DNA of 64,000 nt from positions 273,301-337,300 of IMG/VR virus record IMGVR_UViG_3300026302_000005; one strand, written 5' to 3'. The stretch comes from a virus. Taxonomy: Duplodnaviria > Heunggongvirae > Uroviricota > Caudoviricetes. Below are positions 19,346-56,613 of this stretch, piece after piece. The notes under the pieces were generated by a model. It was not told the origin of the DNA and made no database searches. It saw nothing but the letters and a program-made list of their open reading frames with translations. Each line of letters starts with the position of its first letter. Within the stretch, counting starts at the first letter, position 1. A program made the translations under genes and the position numbers.

Positions 19346-20418
19346 TCCACAATCGTCAGCCGCATGGTCGGGGTCTTCATGGCGTCATCCAGGATGGCCT
19401 GGAATTCGGTCTCCCATGCACCCGCGTCCTTCTCGTCCGACACCATACCGAACCAGCCCATCTTGCCAGATTCGTTCCAGGTGCCGTTGTAGATGGCAGC
19501 GAATGCCGTGAGCGGCTTGACCGTGCCGACGTAATCATCCTCGGTCTTCATGGTTTCGGCATTCCAGCCCCACATGAAGTTGGCCGATCCGTTGACCTTC
19601 TTGATCTCATCCTCATCCTGGCCAGCTTTGGCAAGCTCCACCAGATACTTCGGGTATTCTTGACGGAACCAACGGCGGCGTTCCGCGATCTTGTCAGCCT
19701 TCATGCGGTCCCAGTTGATATCCACCAGGAGTGCAGTGTCCAGCCCACCCGTGTCGGGCTTGTCTTCCATGCCCCAGGACCGCTTGCCGCGATCACCCCC
19801 AGCACCATCCTTGACGAACAGCCGTTCGCTGTAGCGGCCACCGATGACCCACCAGTCCCACTGTGCGTTCGGGTTCGTCCGGTCGATGATGCGGGCGATA
19901 TCGCCATTCTCGTCCAGTTCGATCCAGCCGTATTTGGTTTCGTCGGCGGGCACCGATCCGAGCACCTTGTAGCTGTGCCAGTAATCGACGAACTCCGCGA
20001 ACGTCATGCATTCGGCCACTGAGATTTCGACCTCTTCCGATCCTTCCGGATAGTTCGGGGTGCGGGCATGATAGACGTCGGTGCCCCAGTTGTCCCTGGT
20101 CACCCGGCGTCCATCGGAAAGTTCACGGTCGTTGAAGAAGCCCTTCGACTTGAGATCGGCCTCTTCGACATCGGTCAGTTCCCGCCACAGCGAGTTGTCC
20201 CAGGCAGAAATCAACGTGCCATCGGCCAGTCGGAGCATCGACCGGGTGCGTTCCGGGTTGTTGTATTCTGCACGGGACCGCTCGGTGATGTCGATGTTCT
20301 GAACGAACTCGTTGTCCAATCCAGTGCATTCGAATTCGTGATACGGGGCCAGGGCCCGCTCCACGGTATCATCGGGGTCGGCGTCATTGGTGAAGACTGC
20401 AAGTGCAAAGTGGCTCAT
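19333..20418 (-). CDS. hypothetical protein (361 aa)
   Basis: Long ORF with no recognised motif. Confidence 0.5.
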   Translation of the reverse strand: MSHFALAVFTNDADPDDTVERALAPYHEFECTGLDNEFVQNIDITERSRAEYNNPERTRSMLRLADGTLISAWDNSLWRELTDVEEADLKSKGFFNDRELSDGRRVTRDNWGTDVYHARTPNYPEGSEEVEISVAECMTFAEFVDYWHSYKVLGSVPADETKYGWIELDENGDIARIIDRTNPNAQWDWWVIGGRYSERLFVKDGAGGDRGKRSWGMEDKPDTGGLDTALLVDINWDRMKADKIAERRRWFRQEYPKYLVELAKAGQDEDEIKKVNGSANFMWGWNAETMKTEDDYVGTVKPLTAFAAIYNGTWNESGKMGWFGMVSDEKDAGAWETEFQAILDDAMKTPTMRLTIVDCHI

Positions 20419-21641
20419 TTGATGTGTCCCATGGTTTGATAGGCGAGGTTGATCAGATATTCGCGGGAGGCCGAAAACTCAACACCTGCCCAAACGTCAC
20501 GCAGTTGTCTCAGAATTTTACCCATTTCCGGGCCAGGTGTAAAGCCCAAATCGATCAGGTCTTGACCGGTAATGGGAAATTCCGGAACGGCCATACCTTC
20601 GATATCCCGATACAGCGTGTTGAACCCGGTAGAACTCGGCCCTGTAGTGACTGGCTCCTTTCGGTTCATGATCGCAATCCACGCCAGAACATCCGACTTC
20701 TGATGAGTTGCCAGCATCTGCGTGGATGTGATTCGCGTGGGTGGAGTATCAAAGAACCGCTTAGCAAACAGCACCGGGTTCAGTTCTTCGCGGGAAACCT
20801 TGTAGCGATCTCGCAGCAGTGCCACGGCTTCTCCAATACCTGCTTGGGTTTTGGGAAAGCTTGCCGTCAGCATCACTGCGGGTCGGGTATCCGGTATGGG
20901 GATCAACAGGTTGCTGTCAACCGATGACAGTCCGATATGATCCAGCACTCCGGCACGTTTCATGCGGTTGAACTGACCCCAAGCTGGAGTTGTGCCCATT
21001 TGCAGGATTTTTCCGATTTCCGCCCAGATGCGCTCACCACTGATTTGCTCCAGACCCTTTGCGGTTTCCCGGAAGATTGGATAGAGCAGATCATCATCCC
21101 TGAATTTGGCATTACCTGCCATCTTGGCACAGAACCGAAAATACCGCAGAATTCGCAGATAGTCTTCGCGAATGCGATCCTCGGGGGCCCCGACGAACCG
21201 AATCGTGCCTTCATGCAGATCGGCCATGCCGTTGTGATAATCATGAACCACCAGGTTCACGTCCAGATACATCGCGTTCATGGTGAAGTCTCGACGCAGA
21301 GAATCAGTCATCCAATCCTCAGTGAACGCAACCTCGGCATGACGACCATCCGTGGCCACATCCACACGCAGGGTGGTGACTTCGATGTTTTCATTGCCCA
21401 CAACAACCGTCACGGTGCCGTGCTTGAGCCCGGTCGGCACAACTTGCAGACCAGCCTTTTCCATGATGGTGATGACGGCTTCTGGACGGGCTGTGGTGGC
21501 GATATCCCAGTCCTTGGGATCGCGGGCCATGATCAGGTCACGAACGGCACCACCGCAGATGCGACCTTCATGGCCAGCACCATCCAGCACCCACATCACA
21601 TGCAGAGCAGCAGGGTTGATATCGCTCAGATTAAACTGCAT
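20415..21641 (-). CDS. cca: tRNA nucleotidyltransferase (CCA-adding enzyme / poly(A) polymerase family head domain)
   Basis: Head-domain motif GGAVRDLIMARDPKDWDIATTARPE. Start taken at ATG 21641 (MQFNLSD); the track start at 21728 is a TTG. Confidence 0.7.
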   Translation of the reverse strand: MQFNLSDINPAALHVMWVLDGAGHEGRICGGAVRDLIMARDPKDWDIATTARPEAVITIMEKAGLQVVPTGLKHGTVTVVVGNENIEVTTLRVDVATDGRHAEVAFTEDWMTDSLRRDFTMNAMYLDVNLVVHDYHNGMADLHEGTIRFVGAPEDRIREDYLRILRYFRFCAKMAGNAKFRDDDLLYPIFRETAKGLEQISGERIWAEIGKILQMGTTPAWGQFNRMKRAGVLDHIGLSSVDSNLLIPIPDTRPAVMLTASFPKTQAGIGEAVALLRDRYKVSREELNPVLFAKRFFDTPPTRITSTQMLATHQKSDVLAWIAIMNRKEPVTTGPSSTGFNTLYRDIEGMAVPEFPITGQDLIDLGFTPGPEMGKILRQLRDVWAGVEFSASREYLINLAYQTMGHIK

Positions 21642-21835
21642 TTTCGATCTTCCGTTCCACAACCACACAATCTCGGGGGCACGTGTTGTAGGCCAGCATA
21701 CGCTGGTCTTCACCATGAAATTCCGCAACCACTTCTGGGCAAACCGGATATTTTCCGGACCAGAGCAGTTCGTTGTCGAAGCGGCGGTGTTCGAAAATCA
21801 TGACGGGCTCCTATTGGAACCCACCTATACCCGTA

Positions 21836-27726: not shown

Positions 27727-27803
27727 TGGCGGCTCCGGTGGGACTCGAACCCACGACCAACAGTTTTAGAGACCGCTGCTCTAACCAACTGAGCTACGGA
27801 GCC
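27727..27803 (-). tRNA. amber suppressor tRNA (anticodon CTA, reads UAG); Trp-like body (loop CTCTAAA versus E. coli tRNA-Trp CTCCAAA; discriminator G)
   Basis: Acceptor GGCTCCG/CGGAGCC, D-arm GCTC-AGTTGGTTA-GAGC, anticodon stem GCGGT/ACTGT, T-arm GTGGG-TTCGAGT-CCCAC. Confidence 0.7.
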
Positions 27804-27804
27804 A

Positions 27805-29004
27805 TTGCATAAATACATACGTGTTTCTGATAGAAGAGTCAACCCCATAATGCGCCTGTTACAACTCATTGAAGGGACTTCCGACTACATTGACAGGGCA
27901 AAGGATGCTCGTCGAAACATAAGTCTGGATTCCGTTGTTCAAAAAGCCTTGGATATGGCACAGACCGGTCAGTTTACAGAAGAGAGAACTAGGGCCATCA
28001 ATTTTGCTGCCGAAGTAATCCGATCCGGTAAACCCGCCGCTGTGGTGGGTAGAGAATGGGGCTATAAACCGCACAAATCGTTTAACCACAAACATATTGG
28101 ATTGCGACTGTTGATGCGGGCATATACGGTGCTTGGGGGCACACGATCTGGTGTTGATTTCCAATCCCTGATCGAAGCCCCTATTGGAGACTTTGGCACC
28201 ATCGGAGATTTCTCCGATCCCAACGCCTCGATCCCAAACGCTGCGGATCGTCGTGCTGTTACTGCTGAACCGATGATTCGTCGTATCAAGCTGGCTTGGG
28301 AAAAGACGCCATTTCTGTTCAACCTGTTTTTTGCCAACGTTCCCGGAGCCCAAAAGTGGGTAGAGCAGGGATATGTGAGTGCCGGAACTGTTCGATCCGA
28401 GTTTCCGGACATGGCCAGTCGTATCATGGCTGGAAAAGCAGACAAAGCAATCACTGTGGTATTCACCAACAACCTGGGGGATGCCGGGATCAGCTTTACC
28501 CCGTGGATCATGGCACACCGTATCAGCCACGCAATGGTGGTTCCCAACAATACGAATGATCCTCGGCAGGGTGTTCAGAACCGGGCATTCTACACGGGAT
28601 CGGAGAAACTATACACGTTCACCAACAGTCTGATCTATCAGATGTTCTCAAGGTCAACGGTTAGAGTGGGGTCTGATACCCATGAGCAGATATATCGGCA
28701 CATCTACGAATATATCGGCACCATGAAGTCTGCCAGATCGAAACTGCTGGCCCGACCAAATGAATTCTATCACGAACTGTTTGCCCAATACCTACTGAAT
28801 GGAGACATTACGTTCAATGCCTTCACTCCGGAATTTCTGCTGAACTTTGCGGAAGACTCGGGCACCGGGGAACAGCCCCATATCGAGCACCTCGATACCA
28901 TGCTGGGTGAAATGAATGAGACCCTTGCGGGTCTCAAACAGGAACTCCTGAACAGCTTTACGGCTGGGCTATCCCACGCTCAGGGCAAAGTCATCTTCAT
29001 GTGA
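27805..29004 (+). CDS. hypothetical protein (399 aa)
   Basis: Plus-strand ORF. Possible paralog of 25602..26744 with a degenerate H-motif (HRISH). Confidence 0.45.
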   Translation: MHKYIRVSDRRVNPIMRLLQLIEGTSDYIDRAKDARRNISLDSVVQKALDMAQTGQFTEERTRAINFAAEVIRSGKPAAVVGREWGYKPHKSFNHKHIGLRLLMRAYTVLGGTRSGVDFQSLIEAPIGDFGTIGDFSDPNASIPNAADRRAVTAEPMIRRIKLAWEKTPFLFNLFFANVPGAQKWVEQGYVSAGTVRSEFPDMASRIMAGKADKAITVVFTNNLGDAGISFTPWIMAHRISHAMVVPNNTNDPRQGVQNRAFYTGSEKLYTFTNSLIYQMFSRSTVRVGSDTHEQIYRHIYEYIGTMKSARSKLLARPNEFYHELFAQYLLNGDITFNAFTPEFLLNFAEDSGTGEQPHIEHLDTMLGEMNETLAGLKQELLNSFTAGLSHAQGKVIFM

Positions 29005-30112
29005 TCTGTTCCCATGGGTAGTCGTCATAGCCGAAATGCCCACGTGCAGCGGTCTGACGATAAAGGGGACGACGGAGATCGAACCGCTTGATGATGCCGG
29101 AGGGCGACAAGTCGATGGCGTAGTCTTCCAGGATTTCCCGGACCTCTTCCTCGTTCATACCATCCACATGCACCGAAACAGGCTTGGCAACACCGATGGC
29201 ATACCCAACTTGCACTTCGATGTCTCGCATACCATAGACGGCCTTGCAGAGCGTCTTTGCCACATGGCGGGCTGCATAGGCGGCAGATCGGTCAACCTTG
29301 GTCGGGTCTTTGCCAGAGAAAGCGCCACCACCGTGGCGAGCCATACCACCGTAGGTATCGATAATGATCTTCCGACCGGTCAAACCGGAGTCTGCAATTG
29401 GTCCACCAATCGTCCACGGCCCAGCCGGGTTGAGGAAGTATTTCGTATTCGGGGTGACCAGGTTCTGGTATGGCTCAAGCCCACGACGAACCACATCTTC
29501 CAGGTTCGAACGAATCAGACCATACATGCGTTCGGTAACATCGGTATGCACCGATGACAGAACCACGGTGTCGATCTCGATGGGCTCACCCGTATCGTTG
29601 TCATACCGTATCGTGACTTGTGACTTCGCATCCGGTCCCAGCGGGCCCTGACGACGATCCATCTTATGGGCATTGGTGATCGAGCGGGCCACCATCAACG
29701 GCAACGGCATCATCTCGGGCGTATCGTTGCAGGCATACCCGAACATCAGGCCCTGATCACCGGCACCCAGGTTCTCACCATCAGCGGTAACACTGTCACC
29801 GATCTCCCGGGACTGCTCCGTGATGTTGTGAATCTGCTTGACCTTCCACGGATCAAACCCCCATTGAGGATCATCATATCCAATGGCCGTCAGCGTATCT
29901 CGGACGATCTTGCTGATGTCGAGTTCTGCATTGGTGGTCAGTTCCCCGAACACCATAACAGTATCGCCTTTGACAGCAGATTCGATGGCAACACGGCTCA
30001 TCGGGTCCTGACGAAGGCATTCATCAAGAACGGCATCGCTGATCTGGTCACAGACCTTATCAGGGTGGCCATCAGCCACACTCTCCGACGTGAATAGGTA
30101 GGAACCTTTCAT
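28997..30112 (-). CDS. metK: S-adenosylmethionine synthetase
   Basis: N-terminus MKGSYLFTSESVADGHPDKVCDQISDAVLD and GGGAFSGKDPTKVDRSAAYAARHVAK are diagnostic of MetK. Confidence 0.9.
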   Translation of the reverse strand: MKGSYLFTSESVADGHPDKVCDQISDAVLDECLRQDPMSRVAIESAVKGDTVMVFGELTTNAELDISKIVRDTLTAIGYDDPQWGFDPWKVKQIHNITEQSREIGDSVTADGENLGAGDQGLMFGYACNDTPEMMPLPLMVARSITNAHKMDRRQGPLGPDAKSQVTIRYDNDTGEPIEIDTVVLSSVHTDVTERMYGLIRSNLEDVVRRGLEPYQNLVTPNTKYFLNPAGPWTIGGPIADSGLTGRKIIIDTYGGMARHGGGAFSGKDPTKVDRSAAYAARHVAKTLCKAVYGMRDIEVQVGYAIGVAKPVSVHVDGMNEEEVREILEDYAIDLSPSGIIKRFDLRRPLYRQTAARGHFGYDDYPWEQIT

Positions 30113-45952: not shown

Positions 45953-46737
45953 TACAGGACACTCCTCATCATATCTTCATGTTCAGCAGATTTCTGCAAC
46001 CGTCGCTCTGCAAAGCGATCTCGCACTTCCTGGATAGCACGGGTTTCCTCATCCCGCAAGACCCGAATTTCAGATTGGATCATATCTTCTACCTGCGAAA
46101 TCTCAAGGAATCTCGTGGGTGTAATATGTTCCATCGTCACTTGGTCGCGTTCGATGAACAATTTCCCCCGATTACCACCGAGATATTCGTAGGTCGAAAC
46201 ACCCTTTACCGAATCAACAACCTCCACATAGAGACGCGATTCGGTTTCACGGATCACACGGACCAGCATACCAGCGGTTCTACCGTGCGGGCGGTAATAG
46301 GATGACTTGGCCCGAATCGCCACCAACCGTTCGACCTTAGCCCGCTTCTCGGCTTCGGCCTGGACAAGCTTCTCATACAAAGCCGATCCGGTCTGTTCCC
46401 AATACTCCCGGGCCTGCTTGGTGAACTGGTAGGGTTGATCATACCAAGCAAAGATACCGGCACGACCAAAGCTGTCTTTCTCTTCTGGTGGTTTCTTGAC
46501 CTGAACAGCCCAACCCCATTTCCAGAACGAGTGAGAGATATCGGTTCGGCCATCCATGTGCTGCTCGAACCAGTCATGCGATTTGGGAACCATCGCAGAC
46601 ATATCGCGATGGAACAACGAGTAGGACCTGGACCCCACATGAGATGCCACACATAGACCGAGGTTTTCTTCGATCATACGCTTCAACACCATCAGGTGCT
46701 TGAGCGTGGGCTTCGCCGGTTCGATCTCTCGTGTCAT
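45952..46737 (-). CDS. hypothetical protein (261 aa), coupled to the AAA+ ATPase
   Basis: ORF with a 1-nt stop/start overlap. Confidence 0.45.
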   Translation of the reverse strand: MTREIEPAKPTLKHLMVLKRMIEENLGLCVASHVGSRSYSLFHRDMSAMVPKSHDWFEQHMDGRTDISHSFWKWGWAVQVKKPPEEKDSFGRAGIFAWYDQPYQFTKQAREYWEQTGSALYEKLVQAEAEKRAKVERLVAIRAKSSYYRPHGRTAGMLVRVIRETESRLYVEVVDSVKGVSTYEYLGGNRGKLFIERDQVTMEHITPTRFLEISQVEDMIQSEIRVLRDEETRAIQEVRDRFAERRLQKSAEHEDMMRSVL

Positions 46738-47849
46738 ATCAGATTTCCCATAACCGCATCAACCACAGTCTGCCGCCACGGCTTCAAGAAAGTCGCAGCC
46801 TTCTCATAGGCCCACCGCTCGACCAACTTGACGGCTTCGGTGAACCGCACATCATAGTCGGCTTCGGTGATCACCGTATACGGCTTTTCCAATGCATCCA
46901 ATCGTTCGAGTAGGTTGTGATGGAATTTCATCCGACCTTCATCATCCAGCACCCGGGTTCCATCCTGAACACGCGGGACCGTCGGTGCCAGCACCAGATA
47001 ATGGTCGATGGTCGATTGCCCTGATGCAACCCTGTCGGCCTGAGAGCAGGCTTCGCCCAGATAGATGGGAGCAAACATGCTGGTGACAATCGCCTCGGTA
47101 TCGGTGAAGCTGACAAACTCGCCGGATTTCTGTGCGCTCCAGATCATCGATTGTTGCATCCACACGATGTTGTTGAAATCCTCCATCGTCAAGTCTGGAC
47201 GAGCTTCACTGATGATCCGACCCCACTCGGGGGCATAGGTCGTGTTGAAGTGCTTTGCCAGCTTCTTGACCATCGTAGACTTGCCGGTGGATTCCGCACC
47301 CATCACGGCAACCGTGAGGCCGATGTCAGCTTTGGCCCAATCACTGACCATGTGGAAGTTTGCAAACGGAGCGGTGCGAACCATTGTTGCACTGATCGGG
47401 AACAGTTCTCGGTCAGGATCGATGGGAAACCACGTTGCCTTGGCTGTTCCCGCCCGAGGCCACCGCTTGTTGATCTGATCAGCGATCTCTGCACCATACC
47501 GATCCGATGTGAATACACGATCTGCATCCCACAGATACACCTGGTTCTGGTCCATCCAGAAATCCCAAAATGCCTTGTCCGTGATGGTGCCGGTGGTATC
47601 GGAGTTCGTCGGGCGGTCGTAATCCTGGTCACGAACGATTCTCCACGACTTCCCAGGAACCTTGGGAAGGGAGTTGAGGTAGTTGTGAACCCACCCATAC
47701 CGCTGTTCATATGTGAAGCAGTCCTTCACGGAATCACCCAAGAGGACGGTGAGTTCGGTGCAGTTGGACCAGGCCATGCGGAGCATGAATTCGTGTCCCT
47801 TAGTGAGGGGCATAAAGCGACCGAGTGTGATACCTTTGTTCATGACCAA
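46734..47849 (-). CDS. nadR: NadR-like bifunctional NMN adenylyltransferase / ribosylnicotinamide kinase
   Basis: N-terminal nucleotidyltransferase motif GRFMPLTKGHEFM (HxGH type) plus C-terminal P-loop GAESTGKST. Confidence 0.7.
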   Translation of the reverse strand: MVMNKGITLGRFMPLTKGHEFMLRMAWSNCTELTVLLGDSVKDCFTYEQRYGWVHNYLNSLPKVPGKSWRIVRDQDYDRPTNSDTTGTITDKAFWDFWMDQNQVYLWDADRVFTSDRYGAEIADQINKRWPRAGTAKATWFPIDPDRELFPISATMVRTAPFANFHMVSDWAKADIGLTVAVMGAESTGKSTMVKKLAKHFNTTYAPEWGRIISEARPDLTMEDFNNIVWMQQSMIWSAQKSGEFVSFTDTEAIVTSMFAPIYLGEACSQADRVASGQSTIDHYLVLAPTVPRVQDGTRVLDDEGRMKFHHNLLERLDALEKPYTVITEADYDVRFTEAVKLVERWAYEKAATFLKPWRQTVVDAVMGNLI

Positions 47850-47939: not shown

Positions 47940-48794
47940 TCACCAGGAAGCATATCCGGCGTTGTGAGGCACAATGGTCCCATCCGAACTGGTCGAGTTT
48001 TCGGCATCCCACCGGCGCTTGATACCCGCGACAGCCGCTGCACGATCCTCTTTCCATTCGCGATACCAGGACACGAGACCGTATGTGGCCAAGCACAGGA
48101 AGATCACGTAGAGACCGGAGGTCACATAGAGTTCTTTCTGCCAGTAGACGGGGATCGCGATGATGTCCACGGTGATCCAGAGCAGCCAGTTCTCCAGATA
48201 CTTGCGAAGCATGATGATGCTGGCGATGATGCTGAGCCACATGATGGTGGCGTCGGCCACGGCGAAGTCTGCACCAGCAGCAACCATCTTGGGAACCCAC
48301 CAGGCCATAGCCGCCACAAAGAGAACCACCCACAGAGCCCGAGCCTTGTAGTCCAGGACCTTGATCTTCATGCTGTCGGTCGGGCTCAGCGTGGCTTTGA
48401 CATCACCAAACTTGTTGCCAACCCAGTCCCAGATGGTCGGACCCCACTTCCACATGACGAAGCCGACGATCTGGAGCGGGGCATAGAATGCCCATTGCAG
48501 ATACATGTCGGAAAGCAGGTTGTATTCCTTGAACAGATAGCCGAACAACAGAACACCGGCGAGGCCGAACCAGTAGTTGATCAGCTTCTGCTTTGCCAGC
48601 AGATAGACGTTGACCAACAAAAGGGCCGAAGCGGTAAACTCGATCAGGCCGAGCCAAGAGTTGAAGTAGTTGAAGATCATGCCAGCGTTGAACAACACAA
48701 CGGTGAGGAAGATCGAGGCGAAAGCGGCACCCAAGATCGCGATCTTGGTGTCGCGAGCGAAGTTCGGACCATGCCGGTCACAAAAATCGGACAT
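47940..48794 (-). CDS. pnuC: PnuC-family nicotinamide riboside transporter
   Basis: Multi-TM protein with Trp-rich PnuC-like segments. ATG 48794 has a GGGAGA RBS (the track start at 48854 is a GTG). Adjacent to nadR. Confidence 0.65.
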   Translation of the reverse strand: MSDFCDRHGPNFARDTKIAILGAAFASIFLTVVLFNAGMIFNYFNSWLGLIEFTASALLLVNVYLLAKQKLINYWFGLAGVLLFGYLFKEYNLLSDMYLQWAFYAPLQIVGFVMWKWGPTIWDWVGNKFGDVKATLSPTDSMKIKVLDYKARALWVVLFVAAMAWWVPKMVAAGADFAVADATIMWLSIIASIIMLRKYLENWLLWITVDIIAIPVYWQKELYVTSGLYVIFLCLATYGLVSWYREWKEDRAAAVAGIKRRWDAENSTSSDGTIVPHNAGYASW

Positions 48795-48850
48795 GGTAGT
48801 CTCCCAATGGAAAGGTTGGAGGTGACCGGTATTGGTCACCCCCGTTGTGA

Positions 48851-48988
48851 TCACTCGGTCGCGACGGCTTCGTCGTCCATGCTGTGCAGGAACGATTCGG
48901 TCATGTTCATCACGGTGAATGCGAGGACAAGAGCCACGACAACCAGCGCGATTTTCTTCGGTCCGAGAGATTTGAGTTTTTCGATCAT
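48851..48988 (-). CDS. small membrane protein (45 aa)
   Basis: Not in the track. RBS AAGGA. Single TM helix. Confidence 0.3.
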   Translation of the reverse strand: MIEKLKSLGPKKIALVVVALVLAFTVMNMTESFLHSMDDEAVATE

Positions 48989-49597: not shown

Positions 49598-50089
49598 TCA
49601 TTTCATCAGAGGAAAATCACGCAGGATCGGACGCAGAACATCCTTGAACCCGAACACATATGCCGCCGTGATTTCTGCACGGAAGCACAGCATCATACCG
49701 TTGCCTGTCGGCACCGGAGGATGATCCTCGGGGTGCTTGATCAGGTCCGCATACTCCCGGTGCAACAGGTAGGGGTAGGTGGGATCGACCGACAGTGCTG
49801 CCGGGTGATCCATAGCCTGAGCCATGGTCACAGCAGTCTGGATTTCCATCAAAGAACCAGACAACGTGATGGTGGTGCCGAACCCATCGGCAGAACGAAC
49901 CCACCAATTGAAGTTACGCTCCACTGTCATATCGGTGAGCGGGTCGGTGCGGCCCGCAAGTCTGCGCTGCACATCGTAGGTGAACTTGTTTGCCGCATGG
50001 GCCCCATGAGCCACGGCCTTGCCCGGGTTCATACTGTCCAGGTCGTTCCGCATCAACAGATACAGATAGGGTGCAGGTGCATCAGCCAT
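49598..50089 (-). CDS. PTH2-family peptidyl-tRNA hydrolase-like protein
   Basis: Motif YLLMRNDLDSMNPGKAVAHGAHAA matches the PTH2 signature (vvRtDL.M..GKiaaQ.aHAa). Strong RBS AAGAGGAG upstream of ATG 50089. Confidence 0.55.
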   Translation of the reverse strand: MADAPAPYLYLLMRNDLDSMNPGKAVAHGAHAANKFTYDVQRRLAGRTDPLTDMTVERNFNWWVRSADGFGTTITLSGSLMEIQTAVTMAQAMDHPAALSVDPTYPYLLHREYADLIKHPEDHPPVPTGNGMMLCFRAEITAAYVFGFKDVLRPILRDFPLMK

Positions 50090-50510
50090 CGATTGGCTCC
50101 TCTTTGGGTTTCTGAGTGTCACGGATGAAGAAGATGCCCAGTGGGTATCCATTCGACACGTTGCATTCGGTTGCGTATCCGACGAGCGTGTATCGCCCAC
50201 CGTAGTAGATTTTGATGATCGCCTCGGCTTCGCTGCGGCTCATGGTCTGCCAGTTCTGCTTCCGACCACGCATGGCCTCGGCCCACTTCTCAGGTTCCCA
50301 GCCCGCCATGCGGTCCGAATAGACACCATCAACAGTGCGATCACCCGATTTGAAGTCCCGCCACAGGTAATAGCCACTGAACCCATAAGGAGATTCTTGC
50401 GGCGTCCGATTGTGTAGCCCAGGAGATACCCAGTCGTATTTCGGTCCACCGTAATAGGCGCGATATTGGTCAAAGCGATATGAGTCGCCTTCGAGGCGGG
50501 TTACGGCCAT
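50082..50510 (-). CDS. hypothetical protein
   Basis: ORF. Confidence 0.4.
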   Translation of the reverse strand: MAVTRLEGDSYRFDQYRAYYGGPKYDWVSPGLHNRTPQESPYGFSGYYLWRDFKSGDRTVDGVYSDRMAGWEPEKWAEAMRGRKQNWQTMSRSEAEAIIKIYYGGRYTLVGYATECNVSNGYPLGIFFIRDTQKPKEEPIDG

Positions 50511-50551: not shown

Positions 50552-50848
50552 TCACTTGGTTGTCAACCCGATCTCTTCTGGAAGTTTGTTCCCCTTGTCA
50601 TGATTGCATCGTTCATGAGCAGCCCTGGTGTTCTCGAACTCATCGGCTCCACCTCTGGACACCGGGATGTAGTGGTCCAGGGTTTGATCATCCCCCATGG
50701 GCTGACCGCAATAGAAACACATACCCCGTTGCATCTTGGTTCGTGTCTTCAACCAAGATCGATGTCTATTCGTGTTGAGTATTCCACGAACCACAGCAGA
50801 GGGTTTGCGCAACCGGAACTTCTTCATGAGCCACTCCCTATTGAACAA
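50552..50848 (-). CDS. HNH endonuclease (98 aa)
   Basis: CFYCGQPMGDDQTLDHYIPVSRGGADEFENTRAAHERCNHDKGNK. Confidence 0.7.
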   Translation of the reverse strand: MFNREWLMKKFRLRKPSAVVRGILNTNRHRSWLKTRTKMQRGMCFYCGQPMGDDQTLDHYIPVSRGGADEFENTRAAHERCNHDKGNKLPEEIGLTTK

Positions 50849-51008: not shown

Positions 51009-51299
51009 ATGAGCCAACCACCCGAAATTGCCGAATATAGAGATGCAGGATGCGTGTTCCGGCTTCACCGTGATACACGGGTTCTACAAGTCATCGGCAC
51101 TCCTGCGGAAGCCAGACAAACCATTGTTCGACTACGCCGAGAAGGTTGGCTTCCGAAGAACCTAAGAGCCATCCGGTTTTCAGGCGATCCTGCAATACTG
51201 TTGGTCGGCCCACACCTCACCATCTACATCACCACCAGACCGGCCCCCACTGAGAAGCCAGCCCCATCCTTCGTAGATATCGTTAAGGGCCTGAACTAA
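51009..51299 (+). CDS. hypothetical protein
   Basis: Plus-strand ORF. Confidence 0.35.
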   Translation: MSQPPEIAEYRDAGCVFRLHRDTRVLQVIGTPAEARQTIVRLRREGWLPKNLRAIRFSGDPAILLVGPHLTIYITTRPAPTEKPAPSFVDIVKGLN

Positions 51300-52069
51300 C
51301 CAGCCATCACCATCAACATCAAATCCTGGGCCGACATCGGCTCAGTCGGATGGGTGAGGTCAATCTCCAATCCAGGAATCACCCGTTCCCACGATTTGAG
51401 AGATCGGCATTTCTGAATCATCCCACCGCGATGTTCTATCGGGACCAACGATAGCACTGTGGATTTACAGATAGGTCCCCCATATCGGCGTTGAACCACA
51501 CCAGGCGGGCGATATTCTGTGGATTCTTTCATCGGATTGACCGGATCATACACGACTATCCGGTATCCCAACTCGGGGTAGAGCCAGGATTGTATCCGAG
51601 TATACACGTAGTTCTCAACCAGTGAACCATCATCCTGGACCCGGATGGATCGACAAGGCTGGTTGTAGCCAGGGTTGCTGCTGGGTATCCGATCAATCAC
51701 ACAACCATTCTTGGGCCCGAGATTGACATATGACCGGGATCGCATATCAACCAGGAAGAACCGGAGGGCATAGGTCATGTCCTGATCCTGAATGGTATGT
51801 CCAATTGGGTATACGATCATCCACTTGTCGGTATCCATGGCAGGCCAACCATGTGCCCGCATGGTTCCAGGCCGACACTCGATCAAATTGCTGAGGATTT
51901 TGGATGGGGTCTTGTCGCAGTTGTCCTGCACCCGTATCTGACTGATCCCTGGTGGAAATATCGACCTATCATTACTCCTGACAGCATCGATCCAGCCGCA
52001 GACGTGCTCGGCTGGAGGGATGTCAATTAGTGGGTCATCTGGGAGTATCAGCATACCCCCAGATATCAC
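51296..52069 (-). CDS. hypothetical protein (257 aa)
   Basis: ORF. Confidence 0.45.
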   Translation of the reverse strand: MISGGMLILPDDPLIDIPPAEHVCGWIDAVRSNDRSIFPPGISQIRVQDNCDKTPSKILSNLIECRPGTMRAHGWPAMDTDKWMIVYPIGHTIQDQDMTYALRFFLVDMRSRSYVNLGPKNGCVIDRIPSSNPGYNQPCRSIRVQDDGSLVENYVYTRIQSWLYPELGYRIVVYDPVNPMKESTEYRPPGVVQRRYGGPICKSTVLSLVPIEHRGGMIQKCRSLKSWERVIPGLEIDLTHPTEPMSAQDLMLMVMAG

Positions 52070-52084
52070 ACTACCGAGTAGATG

Positions 52085-52624
52085 TCAACTATCGATTCCT
52101 GGTGCGGTATCGCGGGGAAGCTCGATCACGTTAGGATCGGGTGTCGGCTTCTGGATGTTCTCGGAGGGCGGCGGCAACGCATGGATATCTGGGTGGTCGC
52201 GTTCGTCCAGCGATGGGTCGAATGGGTTCTCGATTATCACCCCGGGCGAATCAGTCCCCATGGCCTCATTCAGGGCTTCCTGTAGGTCTTCCGCCATTTC
52301 CTGGTCCCAGGGCCAAGAAAAGCTGCGGGGGTATTCCAGCCCGTCCCACATCAGGACCATATAGATGCGCTCGCCCTCTACGAAGTGGTGGGTCAGGATT
52401 TGAGCTTGCTCGACCACGGGCCGCTGGAACGGAAACATCAGTTCGACCGGTCGGGCCCGAGACAACAAGTCCACATTCATCATGAACAACCCCGGCAACG
52501 TGAACAGGAAGCCGAATACGATCATGGCTCGGCGATACGGGAACTCACGAACCACACCGAGAAATGCAATGACCGCAGCCACAATAGCCAAGGTGGTATA
52601 GATGATGGTGCCTTCAATCAGCAT
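52085..52624 (-). CDS. membrane-anchored protein with a Pro-rich C-terminal region (TonB/TolA-like architecture, weak)
   Basis: Two N-terminal hydrophobic helices and PPPSENIQKPTPDPNVIELP. Confidence 0.3.
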   Translation of the reverse strand: MLIEGTIIYTTLAIVAAVIAFLGVVREFPYRRAMIVFGFLFTLPGLFMMNVDLLSRARPVELMFPFQRPVVEQAQILTHHFVEGERIYMVLMWDGLEYPRSFSWPWDQEMAEDLQEALNEAMGTDSPGVIIENPFDPSLDERDHPDIHALPPPSENIQKPTPDPNVIELPRDTAPGIDS

Positions 52625-52633
52625 GATGTGATC

Positions 52634-53302
52634 CTATTCCTGGAAGTAGGGTGGGATGGAAGGCGTGGTGGATGCTGCCCCGACACTCCTGATCGGCACA
52701 TACAGGTGGTTCAGACTATCCGGATCAAGCGTCCCGTCGGCATTCAACCTGAACCGAACGATGGTGAGTTCTTGACCGATCTTGACTAGGTTCAGTTTCG
52801 TCTGCACGATCTGGGTGGGCTTTTCCTTGGACTCAGCACCGTCATCGTAGGTGATCGTGATGATCGCCGTAACTTCGACCGTCGGGTGGTTCCCAGCATT
52901 TCCAAACCAATGGATGTTGAATGCCCATTCCCCAGGAGGGACGCCACGAGAGAACATGACCTCATAGTTGCGCCCGGAGATGTCTGCGTAGCTCCCAAGG
53001 TCATCTCGCACCAGGCTCAATACCACGCCGTTCTTGTTGGAGTATCCAACCGGTGGTAGCCCGGGGGATAGTCCCCACAGATCGATATCAGCGTTGTATT
53101 CATCAGGCCAGTAGATTTCGACCCGAACATTCCCACGATCCCGACGGGTGTCCTCAGCAACACTGCTGAGTTCTGGATTGTTTGGTTGTAGAATCAGGAT
53201 GATCAGGATGGCCAGAAATCCACCCAGGAGGCCGAGGACGATATCTCGGAACGCCACACTATGTTCTGGTTCGTCTGAACTATCATCAAACCGGCTCATC
53301 AT
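52634..53302 (-). CDS. ExbD/TolR-like biopolymer transport protein homolog (N-terminal TM anchor plus an extended periplasmic domain)
   Basis: N-terminal segment EHSVAFRDIVLGLLGGFLAILIILIL resembles the ExbD/TolR EINxxPxIDVxLVLL region. Overlaps the upstream MotA/TolQ-like gene by ATGA. Confidence 0.4.
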   Translation of the reverse strand: MMSRFDDSSDEPEHSVAFRDIVLGLLGGFLAILIILILQPNNPELSSVAEDTRRDRGNVRVEIYWPDEYNADIDLWGLSPGLPPVGYSNKNGVVLSLVRDDLGSYADISGRNYEVMFSRGVPPGEWAFNIHWFGNAGNHPTVEVTAIITITYDDGAESKEKPTQIVQTKLNLVKIGQELTIVRFRLNADGTLDPDSLNHLYVPIRSVGAASTTPSIPPYFQE

Positions 53303-53886
53303 GCCCTCAGTATGGTTGTGAACATCTTGGATAGATCAACACGAATCAGATACAGGTTGATCATGTTCCACATCATGCATACGAGACCTGCAAGTGTGGT
53401 GTTGAACGCAGTGGTCAAACCGGACAGAAGCATCACGATGACGCCCTGGGACGCAGTTGGGTCACCAATCACAGAGGGGTCAACGTTGCTGAACGACAAA
53501 AGGATACCGATGACCGTTCCGAACAGCCCGAGGCTGACGAACAGAGTTCCCGCCAGCTTGGATATTCCCAGGTATTGACTGAATTCCTCAGCGATCAGGT
53601 CGCGTTGTTCCGCATCTCGACCATTCGCGGCATAGCTCTGGTAGACGAGGGTTCGGTCGGGGATGGTCTTCCATGACTGGTGAATGGACCAGATCGTAAA
53701 GAAGTTTGCCACCAGCGATCCCGCGAAGAGCACGATGATGAAGTGAGTGATGTAAGTCTGATCGATCAGGAACCGATCAAGCACACCGTTGTAGAATGCC
53801 GTGGCGGCTACCGCCACTAGGAATGAGTTGATGACAACCCACCGAGACAGAATAGTTGACTTCACAGACAGCATCGCATACTCCAT
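53299..53886 (-). CDS. MotA/TolQ/ExbB-family proton channel protein
   Basis: Signature LGLFGTVIGILLSF ... AFNTTLAGLVCMMWNMI in TM2-TM3. Three predicted TM helices. Confidence 0.6.
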   Translation of the reverse strand: MEYAMLSVKSTILSRWVVINSFLVAVAATAFYNGVLDRFLIDQTYITHFIIVLFAGSLVANFFTIWSIHQSWKTIPDRTLVYQSYAANGRDAEQRDLIAEEFSQYLGISKLAGTLFVSLGLFGTVIGILLSFSNVDPSVIGDPTASQGVIVMLLSGLTTAFNTTLAGLVCMMWNMINLYLIRVDLSKMFTTILRA

Positions 53887-54040: not shown

Positions 54041-54115
54041 TGGTGCTGGTGGGGAATTTTGAAATCCCGGCCTCCGACATACCAAGTCGATGCTCTGCCT
54101 CTGAGCTACACCAGC
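54041..54115 (-). tRNA. tRNA-Thr (anticodon GGT)
   Basis: Acceptor GCTGGTG/CACCAGC, anticodon stem TCGAC/GTCGG, loop TTGGTAT. Confidence 0.65.
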
Positions 54116-54248
54116 ATATGTCGGACTAACCGTGGTCCAACGCGGGCTGATTGCGGAGCCATCCGACCGACACCGGGAGTTCCACCCAGGAGACCATGGC
54201 CAACAAGTGACCGATGCTACATCGAGGCTCTCCGGCCTCTGTCAGAAT

Positions 54249-54323
54249 TGGAGCGGGTGAAGGGGGTCGAACCCTCGGCCTTCTGGATGGCAACCAGACG
54301 CTCTACCACTGAGCTACACCCGC
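54249..54323 (-). tRNA. tRNA-Gly (anticodon GCC)
   Basis: GCGGGTGTAGCTCAGTGGTAGAGCG...TTGCCAT. Confidence 0.8.
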
Positions 54324-54379
54324 ATACCTTCGCCCGGAAGCGAAGGGGGCCGCACCCCGTAGGGCTTGGCGTTGAATCT

Positions 54380-54453
54380 TGGAGCGGGTGATCGGATTTG
54401 AACCGACCTCTTTAGCTTGGAAGGCTAAGGCACAACCCCTATACCACACCCGC
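54380..54453 (-). tRNA. tRNA-Gly (anticodon TCC)
   Basis: Acceptor GCGGGTG/CACCCGC, anticodon stem TTAGC/GCTAA, loop CTTCCAA. Confidence 0.65.
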
Positions 54454-54500: not shown

Positions 54501-55844
54501 TCAAAAAAGATGTGAAATTCCTTCCATCGACTGGCCAGGTTGTCGCCATGGGTAGTCCAACGCCTCGTGTGGAATGGTATCCCTGACAAGTCCATGATAA
54601 AACCTGTTGGGCATACTGTAGTAGACAAACGCATCTGGAATGGTGTCTCGCAGATGCGACAGGTGTCGGTTCAGATTGTCAGATCGAACATAGTGGGGCC
54701 TAAGGATAGAGGTTGGCTCATACCAATAGATATTCGATAGTGAGTAGATCACCTGTTTGTGTCCACGAAATGTATCAACGAAATCGGCTCGTCCATAGCC
54801 GGTCATGATATCCAGGTTGTGGAGGTGATAGCGATGTCGGTATGCATTGAAGAAGCTGAGCCACTCCGAGGTGCCACCAAACCGATCCATCATCCCGGCC
54901 CAGAGTGTATCCAAATCCCCATCGACAACCACAGCCCTGGGGCCTGATATGGATTTTGCAAGAATATCACGTGGGTGCCGACCGTCCCAGTCATCCAGCA
55001 TGTATCGGTAGAGGGATTGGGCTACTGTTGAGCAATCGAATAGGACGAACTTGAAATCATCTGCCAGATCGGATTCTCGGGCTAGTTCGAACGGCATGAA
55101 CCCACTGGCCGGAACGACGATCCGTGAAACTCGTTCGTAACCCCGGGTGAATTCCCATACAGGTCGGTCTGTGTTCATCAAGTAAAATTTGGTTTGAGCT
55201 TCGGAGATTTTGCGTTCAACCTTTTCTATGTTGTAATAGAAGGCTTGGTCTGGATACACAAAAAATCGGCTGTGTCTCTCCTTGTTATTGAACGGACGAC
55301 ACCCACCGTTGGCCATACCAAAGGCAACCAGATCGGCACCCGGGGCCGGGTTGGTAACGTTGACCATACCCTCACCGATTCGGGCCCACTTCGGCGTATA
55401 GTCATCGTGGTAGTTTTCAGAGCTTCGCTCGATCACCGGCTTGATACCAGGAGTCGGTTTGTGCCAAACACCACTGGTGGTCCTAAACTTCTCCAGGTTC
55501 ACGATAAACGCTTGATCATGAAGTTCGTAATACCGTTCCCCGCGATCCAATACATGACCAATCACGGCGGTATCCTGATCGACGGTCGTCAGACTTCTCC
55601 AGACGTTTCTCATGAATGAAGCCGTAATATGGCTACCATACTTGAAGAACAACCCCCACTTGCTGGTCGAGGTTTTGGACAAAGCCAAGAGTTCATCGAT
55701 GCTGCTGGCTATCGTAACCTGATCGATATCAAGTGGTGATCGAAAGGCCGTGATGACGTCTCCGAACTGATCCAACAGGTTGAGGCAGATGCTGTTGGTC
55801 AGCGGATCATCCGACTGATCCATGCAAACAAAGATGTGTATCAT
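54501..55844 (-). CDS. hypothetical protein (447 aa), coupled downstream of the AspH-like oxygenase
   Basis: Long ORF. Confidence 0.5.
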   Translation of the reverse strand: MIHIFVCMDQSDDPLTNSICLNLLDQFGDVITAFRSPLDIDQVTIASSIDELLALSKTSTSKWGLFFKYGSHITASFMRNVWRSLTTVDQDTAVIGHVLDRGERYYELHDQAFIVNLEKFRTTSGVWHKPTPGIKPVIERSSENYHDDYTPKWARIGEGMVNVTNPAPGADLVAFGMANGGCRPFNNKERHSRFFVYPDQAFYYNIEKVERKISEAQTKFYLMNTDRPVWEFTRGYERVSRIVVPASGFMPFELARESDLADDFKFVLFDCSTVAQSLYRYMLDDWDGRHPRDILAKSISGPRAVVVDGDLDTLWAGMMDRFGGTSEWLSFFNAYRHRYHLHNLDIMTGYGRADFVDTFRGHKQVIYSLSNIYWYEPTSILRPHYVRSDNLNRHLSHLRDTIPDAFVYYSMPNRFYHGLVRDTIPHEALDYPWRQPGQSMEGISHLF

Positions 55845-55845
55845 A

Positions 55846-56613
55846 TCAATGATTCCTGAGATAGCCGCTGATTACTGCCCACTGAAAGTCTGTAGTTCGA
55901 CAACCACTATCCCGGGCATGTGCAATCATGTGAATGCGGAGTGTATCGGATCGGTTCCATACAGCATGTGTGTTATGGACGTCCAGGAACCGCACATCAC
56001 CTGGAGCCCAAGGGATGATACCCTTACCCTCGATGGCCATATCACAACCTGGTGGGTTGTTCAGACACAGGTTAACCGCAGACATACCCGGACGTGGGGA
56101 ATCACTGTGTGGCAGGATGAACCCACCCGGTTCCAAATACATGAATCGCACCCGAAGGAACTTCTCGAACGGGAATACATCCTGGAACCACTTTGCGGTC
56201 ACTGGTGCCGCTGCACAGGCCACGGTCCACCGGTAGGGGGCTTCCATGACATCCGAATATCCGTATTGATTCGCATCATTGGTCTTGTCATACTCGATGC
56301 CATGCAGTGCTATCGATTTCCACCCGACATGCGATCCGCCACGATGGCCAACCGACCAGGGATACAGGGCCAATCCTTCCTGATACATCTGCTCAAATGG
56401 CGGCTCAATATCCATGCGGACACTGGTGTTGGTGGATTGAGTTCTGATCCATGTGAAGAACTCATCAATCTCCGCTATCGAGAAGTCATCTCGATTCAGC
56501 GGATTGTGCTTGGAGAAGAACCGGAAGAACCGATATCGGGCGACATCATCAGGCTGCGGTGCCCACGGGAGATGTTCGTTTTGGTCAAAGAAGTCGATCA
56601 AACGCTGATCCAT
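55846..56613 (-). CDS. Asp/Asn beta-hydroxylase family 2OG-Fe(II) oxygenase (AspH/LpxO-like)
   Basis: ILPHSDSPRPGMSAVNLCL...FLDVHNTHAVWN...RIHMIAHA aligns with the AspH catalytic-domain HxD...H pattern. Confidence 0.6.
   Translation of the reverse strand: MDQRLIDFFDQNEHLPWAPQPDDVARYRFFRFFSKHNPLNRDDFSIAEIDEFFTWIRTQSTNTSVRMDIEPPFEQMYQEGLALYPWSVGHRGGSHVGWKSIALHGIEYDKTNDANQYGYSDVMEAPYRWTVACAAAPVTAKWFQDVFPFEKFLRVRFMYLEPGGFILPHSDSPRPGMSAVNLCLNNPPGCDMAIEGKGIIPWAPGDVRFLDVHNTHAVWNRSDTLRIHMIAHARDSGCRTTDFQWAVISGYLRNH

Follow-up and report, generated by a model that had tools for sequence, protein, structure and literature searches.

The turning of ion flow into mechanical work is the business of a small set of membrane motors, MotAB, ExbBD, TolQR, GldLM and ZorAB, and the new sets of partners found for such motors have each revealed new cell biology. 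The plasticity of the non-flagellar, Exb/Tol-type systems has been noted (PMC12505986), and a precedent for still further partners is provided by Williams-Jones et al. 2025 (PMC12204202), in which TolQ-like genes without a neighbouring tolR or exbD encode rings that pair with von Willebrand factor A (vWA) proteins rather than ExbD, the Asp-bearing pore helix of the partner being fused to another periplasmic domain and predicted to lie inside the pentamer. Here we describe three adjacent genes, A, B and C (Table 1), from a tailed virus of the class Caudoviricetes; they lie in a stretch of 64,000 nucleotides, hereafter the window, that spans positions 273,301 to 337,300 of the IMG/VR record IMGVR_UViG_3300026302_000005. 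We propose, with a probability of roughly 60%, that their products together make up a machine of the inner membrane, complete in itself and of the MotAB/ExbBD/TolQR class, with a new axle and a new third partner. What is new in this locus is B and C, set around a recognizable A.

A first-pass annotation, made from the sequence alone, had assigned a MotA/TolQ/ExbB signature to the product of A, and this assignment holds: the motifs LGLFGTVIG and AFNTTLAGL were located at residues 119-127 and 160-168, inside a segment (residues 99-170) that matches Pfam family PF01618 (MotA_ExbB) with 33.5 bits and E 4.1e-8, the gathering cut-off being 22.9, and homologues of A in Azospirillum and related phages likewise carry PF01618. 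On these sequence grounds A is a member of the MotA/TolQ/ExbB family. Four membrane helices are predicted, at about 16-33, 46-67, 110-132 and 149-180; hydrophobic segments and charge counts place both ends of the protein in the cytoplasm, with a cytoplasmic loop of ~40 residues. Because a word-indexed protein search found only four relatives of A and three of C, local profiles built from fetched loci were used to follow both families. An alignment of 85 A-family sequences reveals conservation of N20, G120, G123, T124, G127, T164, G167 and W173, with T124 kept in 99% and T164 in 100% of the sequences. Compared with E. coli proteins, the A profile scores 22.5 bits against TolQ, 15.9 against ExbB and 2.3 against MotA; the last two helices of A align to transmembrane helices 2 and 3 of TolQ, in a register that pairs T124 with the GTV motif and T164 with the AT motif of both TolQ and ExbB, motifs which we take to hold the pore threonines (T145 and T178 in TolQ, T148 and T181 in ExbB, E. 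coli numbering). A thus combines a MotA-like topology with a TolQ/ExbB-like channel sequence and has almost no cytoplasmic domain. Other gene calls start A at Met5, giving 191 amino acids, and in some other phages the protein measures only 124-137 amino acids.

A and B share the four letters ATGA (GGCATGATGAGC), in which the stop of the one gene overlaps the start of the other; this confirms the coupling recorded in the first-pass annotation. That annotation had further described B as carrying an ExbD/TolR-like N-terminal anchor ahead of a larger domain. The anchor stands insofar as B begins with a single hydrophobic helix, followed by ~170 residues, and has an Asp at position 20, at the N-terminal edge of the membrane helix, that is invariant in 47 of 47 B sequences; the B profile sets this residue on ExbD D25, TolR D23 and MotB D32, the same relative position as in the known axles. 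The kinship to ExbD does not stand: the ExbD hidden Markov model PF02472, put forward as the check, finds nothing at E<=1 in B itself nor at E<=0.1 in 45 family members, and there is no ExbD domain. MotB and OmpA models likewise give no match to B, and no OmpA-like peptidoglycan-binding domain was found with them. B therefore has a stator-axle pore helix without an ExbD/TolR or OmpA-like domain behind it.

In place of these domains, an AlphaFold2 (AF2) model of B shows a short helix (residues 43-50) just past the membrane helix and then an eight-stranded beta-sandwich whose invariant residues include D72, D74, W76, G86, Y87, R99, D100, D101 and G103, and further E114, N129, E178 and T180. The nearest solved fold to the sandwich appears to be TerD (2kxt, 2qz7), a tentative resemblance at the level of the fold only: Foldseek searches of the PDB and BFVD with B gave no convincing match, and nothing significant in the PDB; the B profile found none among PDB sequences; Pfam TerD matches neither B nor the family members tested; and hhalign of the B profile against an alignment of TerD/TerE/TerZ-type proteins returned a probability of 0.7%. 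Identity to TerD is 11-12%. The invariant acidic residues of B that might serve in Ca2+-binding acidic loops are D72, D74, D100, D101, E114 and E178. B also differs from TerD in being membrane-anchored, TerD proteins being soluble and cytoplasmic. B itself is without a match in Pfam, NCBIfam, PADLOC or PHROGs, the last of which gave none for A, C or the next gene, D, either. Weak matches to Pfam DUF2135, presumably the YfaP-type domain, occur in eight of 45 B proteins (best E 3.3e-4) and hint that the sandwich may be distantly linked to that domain. The B family is large, with at least 100 relatives in the word-indexed search and, when 1.84 billion cluster representatives were searched with the profile, 2,091 that match at E<=1e-3, of which 1,519 reach E<=1e-10; the members among the matches listed are about 150-260 amino acids long, and their source labels read only 'hypothetical protein', with no Pfam domain or functional name.

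The product of C was originally described as a membrane anchor with a Pro-rich segment reminiscent of TonB or TolA. It is indeed a membrane protein with a Pro-rich tail, but the anchor consists of two helices and homology to TonB or TolA is lacking. Helix 2 is followed by a conserved LLS+P+PV motif, a small domain (about residues 67-135) and a tail motif that reads PFExSxDxREPxFYALPQPxxPxK across the family; the small domain appears as beta-beta-beta-alpha-beta in a low-confidence AF2 model (three sequences; mean predicted local distance difference test (pLDDT) 53.5). Because the loop between the helices is strongly basic (2.9 Lys+Arg per ~9 residues, with hardly any acidic residue), and with an N-terminus devoid of positive charge, the C-terminal two thirds of C are predicted to be periplasmic. 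Profile searches with C matched no Pfam family and no PDB sequence, and the C profile has no similarity to E. coli TolA. We also considered C as a TonB/TolA homologue and rejected the assignment: there are two helices, these contain no conserved His, and no globular domain follows the Pro-rich stretch. C may nevertheless do the job of TonB or TolA while being unrelated to either family.

The three genes recur together far beyond the window. With each species represented by one genome, a scan of bacteria turned up 453 stretches that encode relatives of B, and most of the best 80 of these carry alphaproteobacterial labels (Azospirillum, Skermanella, Arenibaculum, Geminicoccaceae and others). Gene order was counted at 86 loci, including two from GenBank rhizobiophages: B has A before it in 81 and C after it in about 79, the gene after B in Azospirillum encoding a protein 34% identical to C (E 5e-19). 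The bacterial neighbours look core-chromosomal (ABC transporter, yajQ, hisS and sox genes), and in Azospirillum two paralogous A-B-C cassettes lie ~24 kb apart on a chromid of ~1.8 Mb (L023/L037, L026/L055 and L029/L038); the plasmid records of these chromids offer no annotation that could be used. No fourth gene is conserved with the trio, either in the 80 genome loci, where no neighbour recurs in more than 24, or in the viral loci. One bacterial A-B subclade, marked by the B motif VARDML (L006, L033 and L020), has no detectable C; at its Skermanella stibiiresistens locus (L006 7322-8903) an 82-amino-acid gene of the TatA/B/E family follows B, a candidate substitute for C that we set aside since it occurs at one locus only.

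Among viruses, two pattern-limited scans of IMG/VR found at least 57 contigs with the module, their content of guanine plus cytosine ranging from 35 to 71%. Of the 57, 56 gave B, 55 gave C and 50 gave A, and 50 keep the full trio in A-B-C order; with C after B in 55 of 57 viral loci as well as in the bacteria, the earlier claim of a third membrane protein tied to the A-B pair is borne out. A tblastn search located B in 10 GenBank rhizobiophage records. In the temperate Rhizobium phage 16-3 the genes are p038 (A), p040 (B) and p042 (C), unannotated and in the same order; this locus differs from that of the window in its shorter A (~138 amino acids) and in the small genes p039 and p041, which lie between the three. 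The C profile detects 16-3 p042 (E 1.7e-13) and the counterpart in phage RHph_TM3_3_14B (E 2.4e-12), where the A-B-C order is also kept. All three genes are present in L093, an unrelated phage-like contig of 55 kb, and the 69-kb phage-like L092 has A, B and a C-like open reading frame (ORF) missed by the C profile; in both, the module sits amid DNA-metabolism genes, and in phages generally its neighbours are early or metabolic genes rather than genes for structure or lysis. A-B-C is thus a conserved cassette of bacteria and phages. A neighbour-joining tree of B places the window beside other jumbo-phage contigs, in a clade that contains phages only, while the bacteria that were sampled make up a nested clade; the bacterial sample is biased towards relatives of Azospirillum, and the tree does not fix the direction of transfer. 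The first-pass annotation had called carriage of such an energizer by a phage unusual, which does not hold for its frequency, given the contigs and rhizobiophages above, but does hold for its recognition: we found no annotation of the viral copies, and our searches of full-text literature found no description of an A-B-C family or of phage-borne MotA/ExbB-type modules. As a separate observation, phages of the 16-3 type carry, directly upstream of A and with overlapping stop and start codons, a gene for a trypsin-like serine protease, probably periplasmic, which was seen in 14 viral loci only.

These features suggest a working model. A would be a minimal TolQ/ExbB-like ring subunit whose T124 and T164 line the pore; two B helices would stand inside the ring, in what would presumably be a 5:2 assembly, with Asp20 as the proton-binding site facing the ring of threonines and so coupling the machine to proton flow. 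The TerD-like sandwich of B, probably in the periplasm, would replace the ExbD/TolR or OmpA-like domain, and C, held by its two-helix anchor and projecting into the periplasm, would likely serve as output or adaptor subunit peripheral to the ring, with its Pro-rich C-terminal motif as the candidate site for contacting an envelope target. A periplasmic output is also what would be expected from TolQR and ExbBD, whose genes are likewise adjacent and coupled, and here, too, the output of such a machine must be periplasmic, because A has almost no cytoplasmic domain, least of all in those phages in which it is shortest. As an accessory, non-structural gene set the module would be expressed in the infected cell and act on the host envelope. 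Our leading guesses for its role in phages are that the envelope is kept intact or conditioned during infection, or that other phages are excluded; the first-pass suggestion of a role in the entry of the phage's own DNA is implausible, because integral membrane proteins are made only after entry. A broader proposal, which we offer as tentative and regard as possible rather than probable, is that A-B-C represents an unrecognized branch of the 5:2 ion-driven motor superfamily, chiefly spread by phages, in which proton-powered force reaches a generic component of the envelope by way of the TerD-like axle domain and a two-helix transducer, so as to exclude rivals or to hold the envelope until lysis. 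Phage lineages hold the deep branches of the B tree.

Comparison with the described systems shows where such a machine would depart from them. Relative to TolQR and ExbBD, A has an extra N-terminal helix, for a MotA-like total of four, and a minimal cytoplasmic domain, the sandwich of B is TerD-like and not of the ExbD/TolR fold, and C is unrelated to TonB and TolA. The TolQ-like/vWA rings (PMC12204202) have vWA partners, usually in heterologous pairs, and no link to phages is drawn in the section consulted; A-B-C differs from those systems in its TerD-like sandwich, its single B gene and its dedicated two-helix C. Several observations count against the model. A lacks a conserved Glu equivalent to ExbB E176 or TolQ E173. 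The match of the B helix to ExbD, TolR and MotB, at ~3 bits, is non-significant, so that the comparison depends on one invariant residue and its context. By the positive-inside rule alone, the flanks of that helix (acidic on the N-terminal side, slightly more basic on the C-terminal side) would put the sandwich in the cytoplasm; the N-terminus of E. coli ExbD, a cytoplasmic end, is similarly acidic. The AF2 model of C is poor, as its pLDDT indicates, and about seven of the 86 loci have no detectable C, some of them being ended by a contig edge.

Four other explanations deserve to be weighed against a self-contained envelope motor. The layout had originally been likened to Zorya, and indeed A-B resembles ZorA-ZorB in being a MotAB-like pair tied to mobile elements and to phage biology. 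A Zorya-like switch for defence or superinfection exclusion, in which A-B senses the disturbance of the envelope by an incoming phage and triggers D and the HNH protein as effector, could draw on the fact that ZorA models are the best PADLOC/NCBIfam matches to A (E about 3e-7), on the presence of the module in temperate phages and in IMG/VR contigs of prophage origin, settings in which exclusion genes are frequent, and on the 257-amino-acid ORF (D) and HNH gene that do lie downstream on the same strand, as first described (HNH E 2.7e-11). Yet the ZorA matches (PADLOC and NCBIfam) cover the hairpin only and, at 23-27 bits, fall far short of cut-offs of 500-700; the long cytoplasmic tail of ZorA is missing from A, whose loop is nearly gone in some phages; B has no peptidoglycan-binding domain such as that of ZorB; and ZorC, ZorD and ZorE are missing from the module, with no ZorC, ZorD or other effector conserved beside the trio across the 80 genome loci and the clustered viral loci. 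Counterparts of D are confined to the two closest relatives, with 29% and 25% identity against 68% and 60% for B, and L089 and L091 have none; the HNH gene is shared with L087 but missing from L088. On this patchy distribution we reject D and HNH as effectors. Because neither is a conserved partner, the resemblance of the layout to Zorya is accidental, and we judge a Zorya-like switch to be quite improbable; exclusion by some other mechanism is already among the leading guesses for the motor proposed here. Least probable of all, to the point that we give it hardly any weight, is that a host's ordinary Ton or Tol machinery (ExbB-ExbD-TonB or TolQ-TolR-TolA) was captured to energize outer-membrane receptors or Pal. 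The order of channel, axle and anchored Pro-rich protein does mimic exbB-exbD-tonB, and the A profile is nearer to TolQ and ExbB than to MotA, but membership of these families is refuted by the absence of PF02472 from all 45 B proteins, by the features of C given above and by TIGR exbB/tolQ models that score A, over the hairpin only, at 12-21 bits against cut-offs of 135-221, and the 80 genome loci show no linked gene for a TonB-dependent receptor, TolB or Pal.

The two remaining explanations dispense with a force-generating output. Unplugged channels of the MotAB type leak protons, as MotB plug mutants do, and A-B could be a gated proton leak, with C as its gate, that brings about a timed drop in membrane potential to schedule lysis, shut off the host or commit abortive suicide; the lack of a cytoplasmic output domain in A would suit such a device, and helix 43-50 of B sits where a plug would. 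A leak would have no need, however, of the specific partners suggested by a conserved 130-residue sandwich in B and by the periplasmic motifs of C, and it sits poorly with the core-like chromosomal setting in Azospirillum, sometimes in two copies, and with the distance from lysis genes, which are not adjacent in most phages; we think it unlikely. Alternatively, there may be no motor at all, A being a diverged protein that retains only the hairpin, and B and C co-transcribed envelope proteins, for instance a Ter-like module for Ca2+ binding or stress. The B domain appears to resemble TerD, a Ca2+-binding stress protein, and B has no significant sequence link to ExbD, TolR or MotB; the ter operon, moreover, has been implicated in phage inhibition and colicin resistance (PMC8123226). 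Against this stand the TolQ-type hairpin with both Thr residues, the invariant Asp, the 4-nt overlap and a gene order that stays fixed between very distant genomes, together the signature of a stator pair in A-B, and the absence of sequence homology between B and TerD, so that this explanation, too, seems to us an improbable one.

Within the window, A, B, C and D are co-directional and lie downstream of a cluster of tRNA genes (Thr, Gly, Gly; 54041-54453), with 9 nt between B and C and 15 nt between C and D. A, B and C are all intact and under purifying selection, the proportion of non-synonymous differences (pN) being 0.19-0.26 and that of synonymous differences (pS) 0.70-0.80 relative to the closest relative, L087. 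A scan for promoters and terminators gave no signal above the shuffled expectation, and megablast of the 6-kb region against GenBank phages returned tRNA-sized stretches only. Between D and the HNH gene, the ORF on the opposite strand has counterparts of 71% identity in L087 and 48% in L088 and corresponds to a portion of a longer ORF in L091. Genes for homing-type endonucleases vary in their presence around the module: L087 carries, besides its HNH gene, an extra HNH_3 gene upstream of A (the two at 6650-7297 and 10497-10775), and in RHph_TM3_3_14B a Seg-like endonuclease gene is inserted between A and B (L001 4126-4884). The pair of genes upstream of A, for an oxygenase and for a 447-amino-acid protein, recurs upstream of A in L087 and L088, a synteny of the lineage.

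Table 1. Coordinates of the A-B-C module and of other features mentioned in the text (positions are those of the window unless a locus is named)
Feature	Position	Strand	Remark
Gene A	53299-53886	minus	195 aa ORF
A, channel-forming helix hairpin, residues 99-170	53377-53592	minus	Pfam segment and TolQ/ExbB register
A, T124 codon	53515-53517	minus	codon checked
A, T164 codon	53395-53397	minus	codon checked
Gene B	52634-53302	minus	222 aa ORF
B, membrane helix HSVAFRD20IVLGLLGGFLAILIILIL, residues 14-38	53189-53263	minus	AF2 helix
B, Asp20 codon	53243-53245	minus	codon checked
B, beta-sandwich domain, residues 58-186, eight strands	52745-53131	minus	
Gene C	52085-52624	minus	179 aa ORF
C, helix 1, residues 6-25	52550-52609	minus	
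C, helix 2, residues 34-51	52472-52525	minus	
C, Pro-rich tail, residues 144-179	52088-52195	minus	9 prolines in last 36 residues
Gene D	51296-52069	minus	257 aa ORF
Opposite-strand ORF, 96 aa	51009-51299	plus	between D and HNH
HNH gene	50552-50848	minus	Pfam HNH E 2.7e-11
Protease-A link	L002 3148-4591 (16-3 p036-p038); L001 2994-4126		
Asp/Arg beta-hydroxylase-like oxygenase	55846-56613	minus	Pfam 6.8e-14
447-aa protein	54501-55844	minus	no family match; next after oxygenase
200-aa protein	49598-50200	minus	weak PTH2 (peptidyl-tRNA hydrolase) match E 0.0035; phrog_1866 1.1e-14
PnuC nicotinamide-mononucleotide transporter	47940-48854	minus	Pfam 2.2e-38; phrog_1880
AAA_28 protein	46734-47849	minus	adjoins PnuC gene
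Flotillin/SPFH protein, 574 aa	31125-32849	minus	Pfam Flot 1.4e-30, Band_7 7.7e-16
S-adenosylmethionine synthetase	28997-30112	minus	all three MetK domains
CCA-adding/poly(A) polymerase-type nucleotidyltransferase	20415-21728	minus	
ATP-dependent DNA ligase	13734-15029	minus	

The wider setting indicates that the window is probably part of a jumbo phage. It holds 28 tRNA genes, all on the minus strand between 5587 and 56708 (ARAGORN), and numerous ORFs without a family match; its AAA ATPase has its best relatives in Rhizobium phages; a contig of 375,951 bp encodes proteins identical to A (bar the later called start) and to C; and the close relatives of the locus include IMG/VR contigs of 204 and 360 kb. 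One of the tRNA genes, at 27727-27803, has a CUA anticodon and the ARAGORN label 'Pyl', and is a possible amber suppressor. Other genes of the window are listed in Table 1. The flotillin/SPFH gene adds a further host-like membrane-organizing protein to the accessory region; the AAA_28 protein, which we take to be NadR-like, forms with the PnuC transporter a pair also present in L087; and a gene similar to that of the 200-amino-acid protein lies near the module in L089.

If the proposal is right, the trio would extend the known ion-driven motors by a branch in which both the axle domain and the third subunit are new, and it would be the first virus-encoded motor of the 5:2 class in the literature we looked at, possibly also the smallest. 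The small ring subunit A would make a good subject for structural and mechanistic work, and the genetic tractability of phage 16-3 and of Azospirillum brasilense makes direct testing possible. About 2,100 B-type clusters, together with the C-type proteins adjacent to them, are at present 'hypothetical' and could gain annotation at the level of the family. For the biology of infection, a motor installed in the host envelope by a virus is not part of current descriptions, and carriage of the module by many phages, from genomes of 55 kb to jumbo phages, suggests that viruses may routinely install a proton-powered device in the envelope of the cells they infect.

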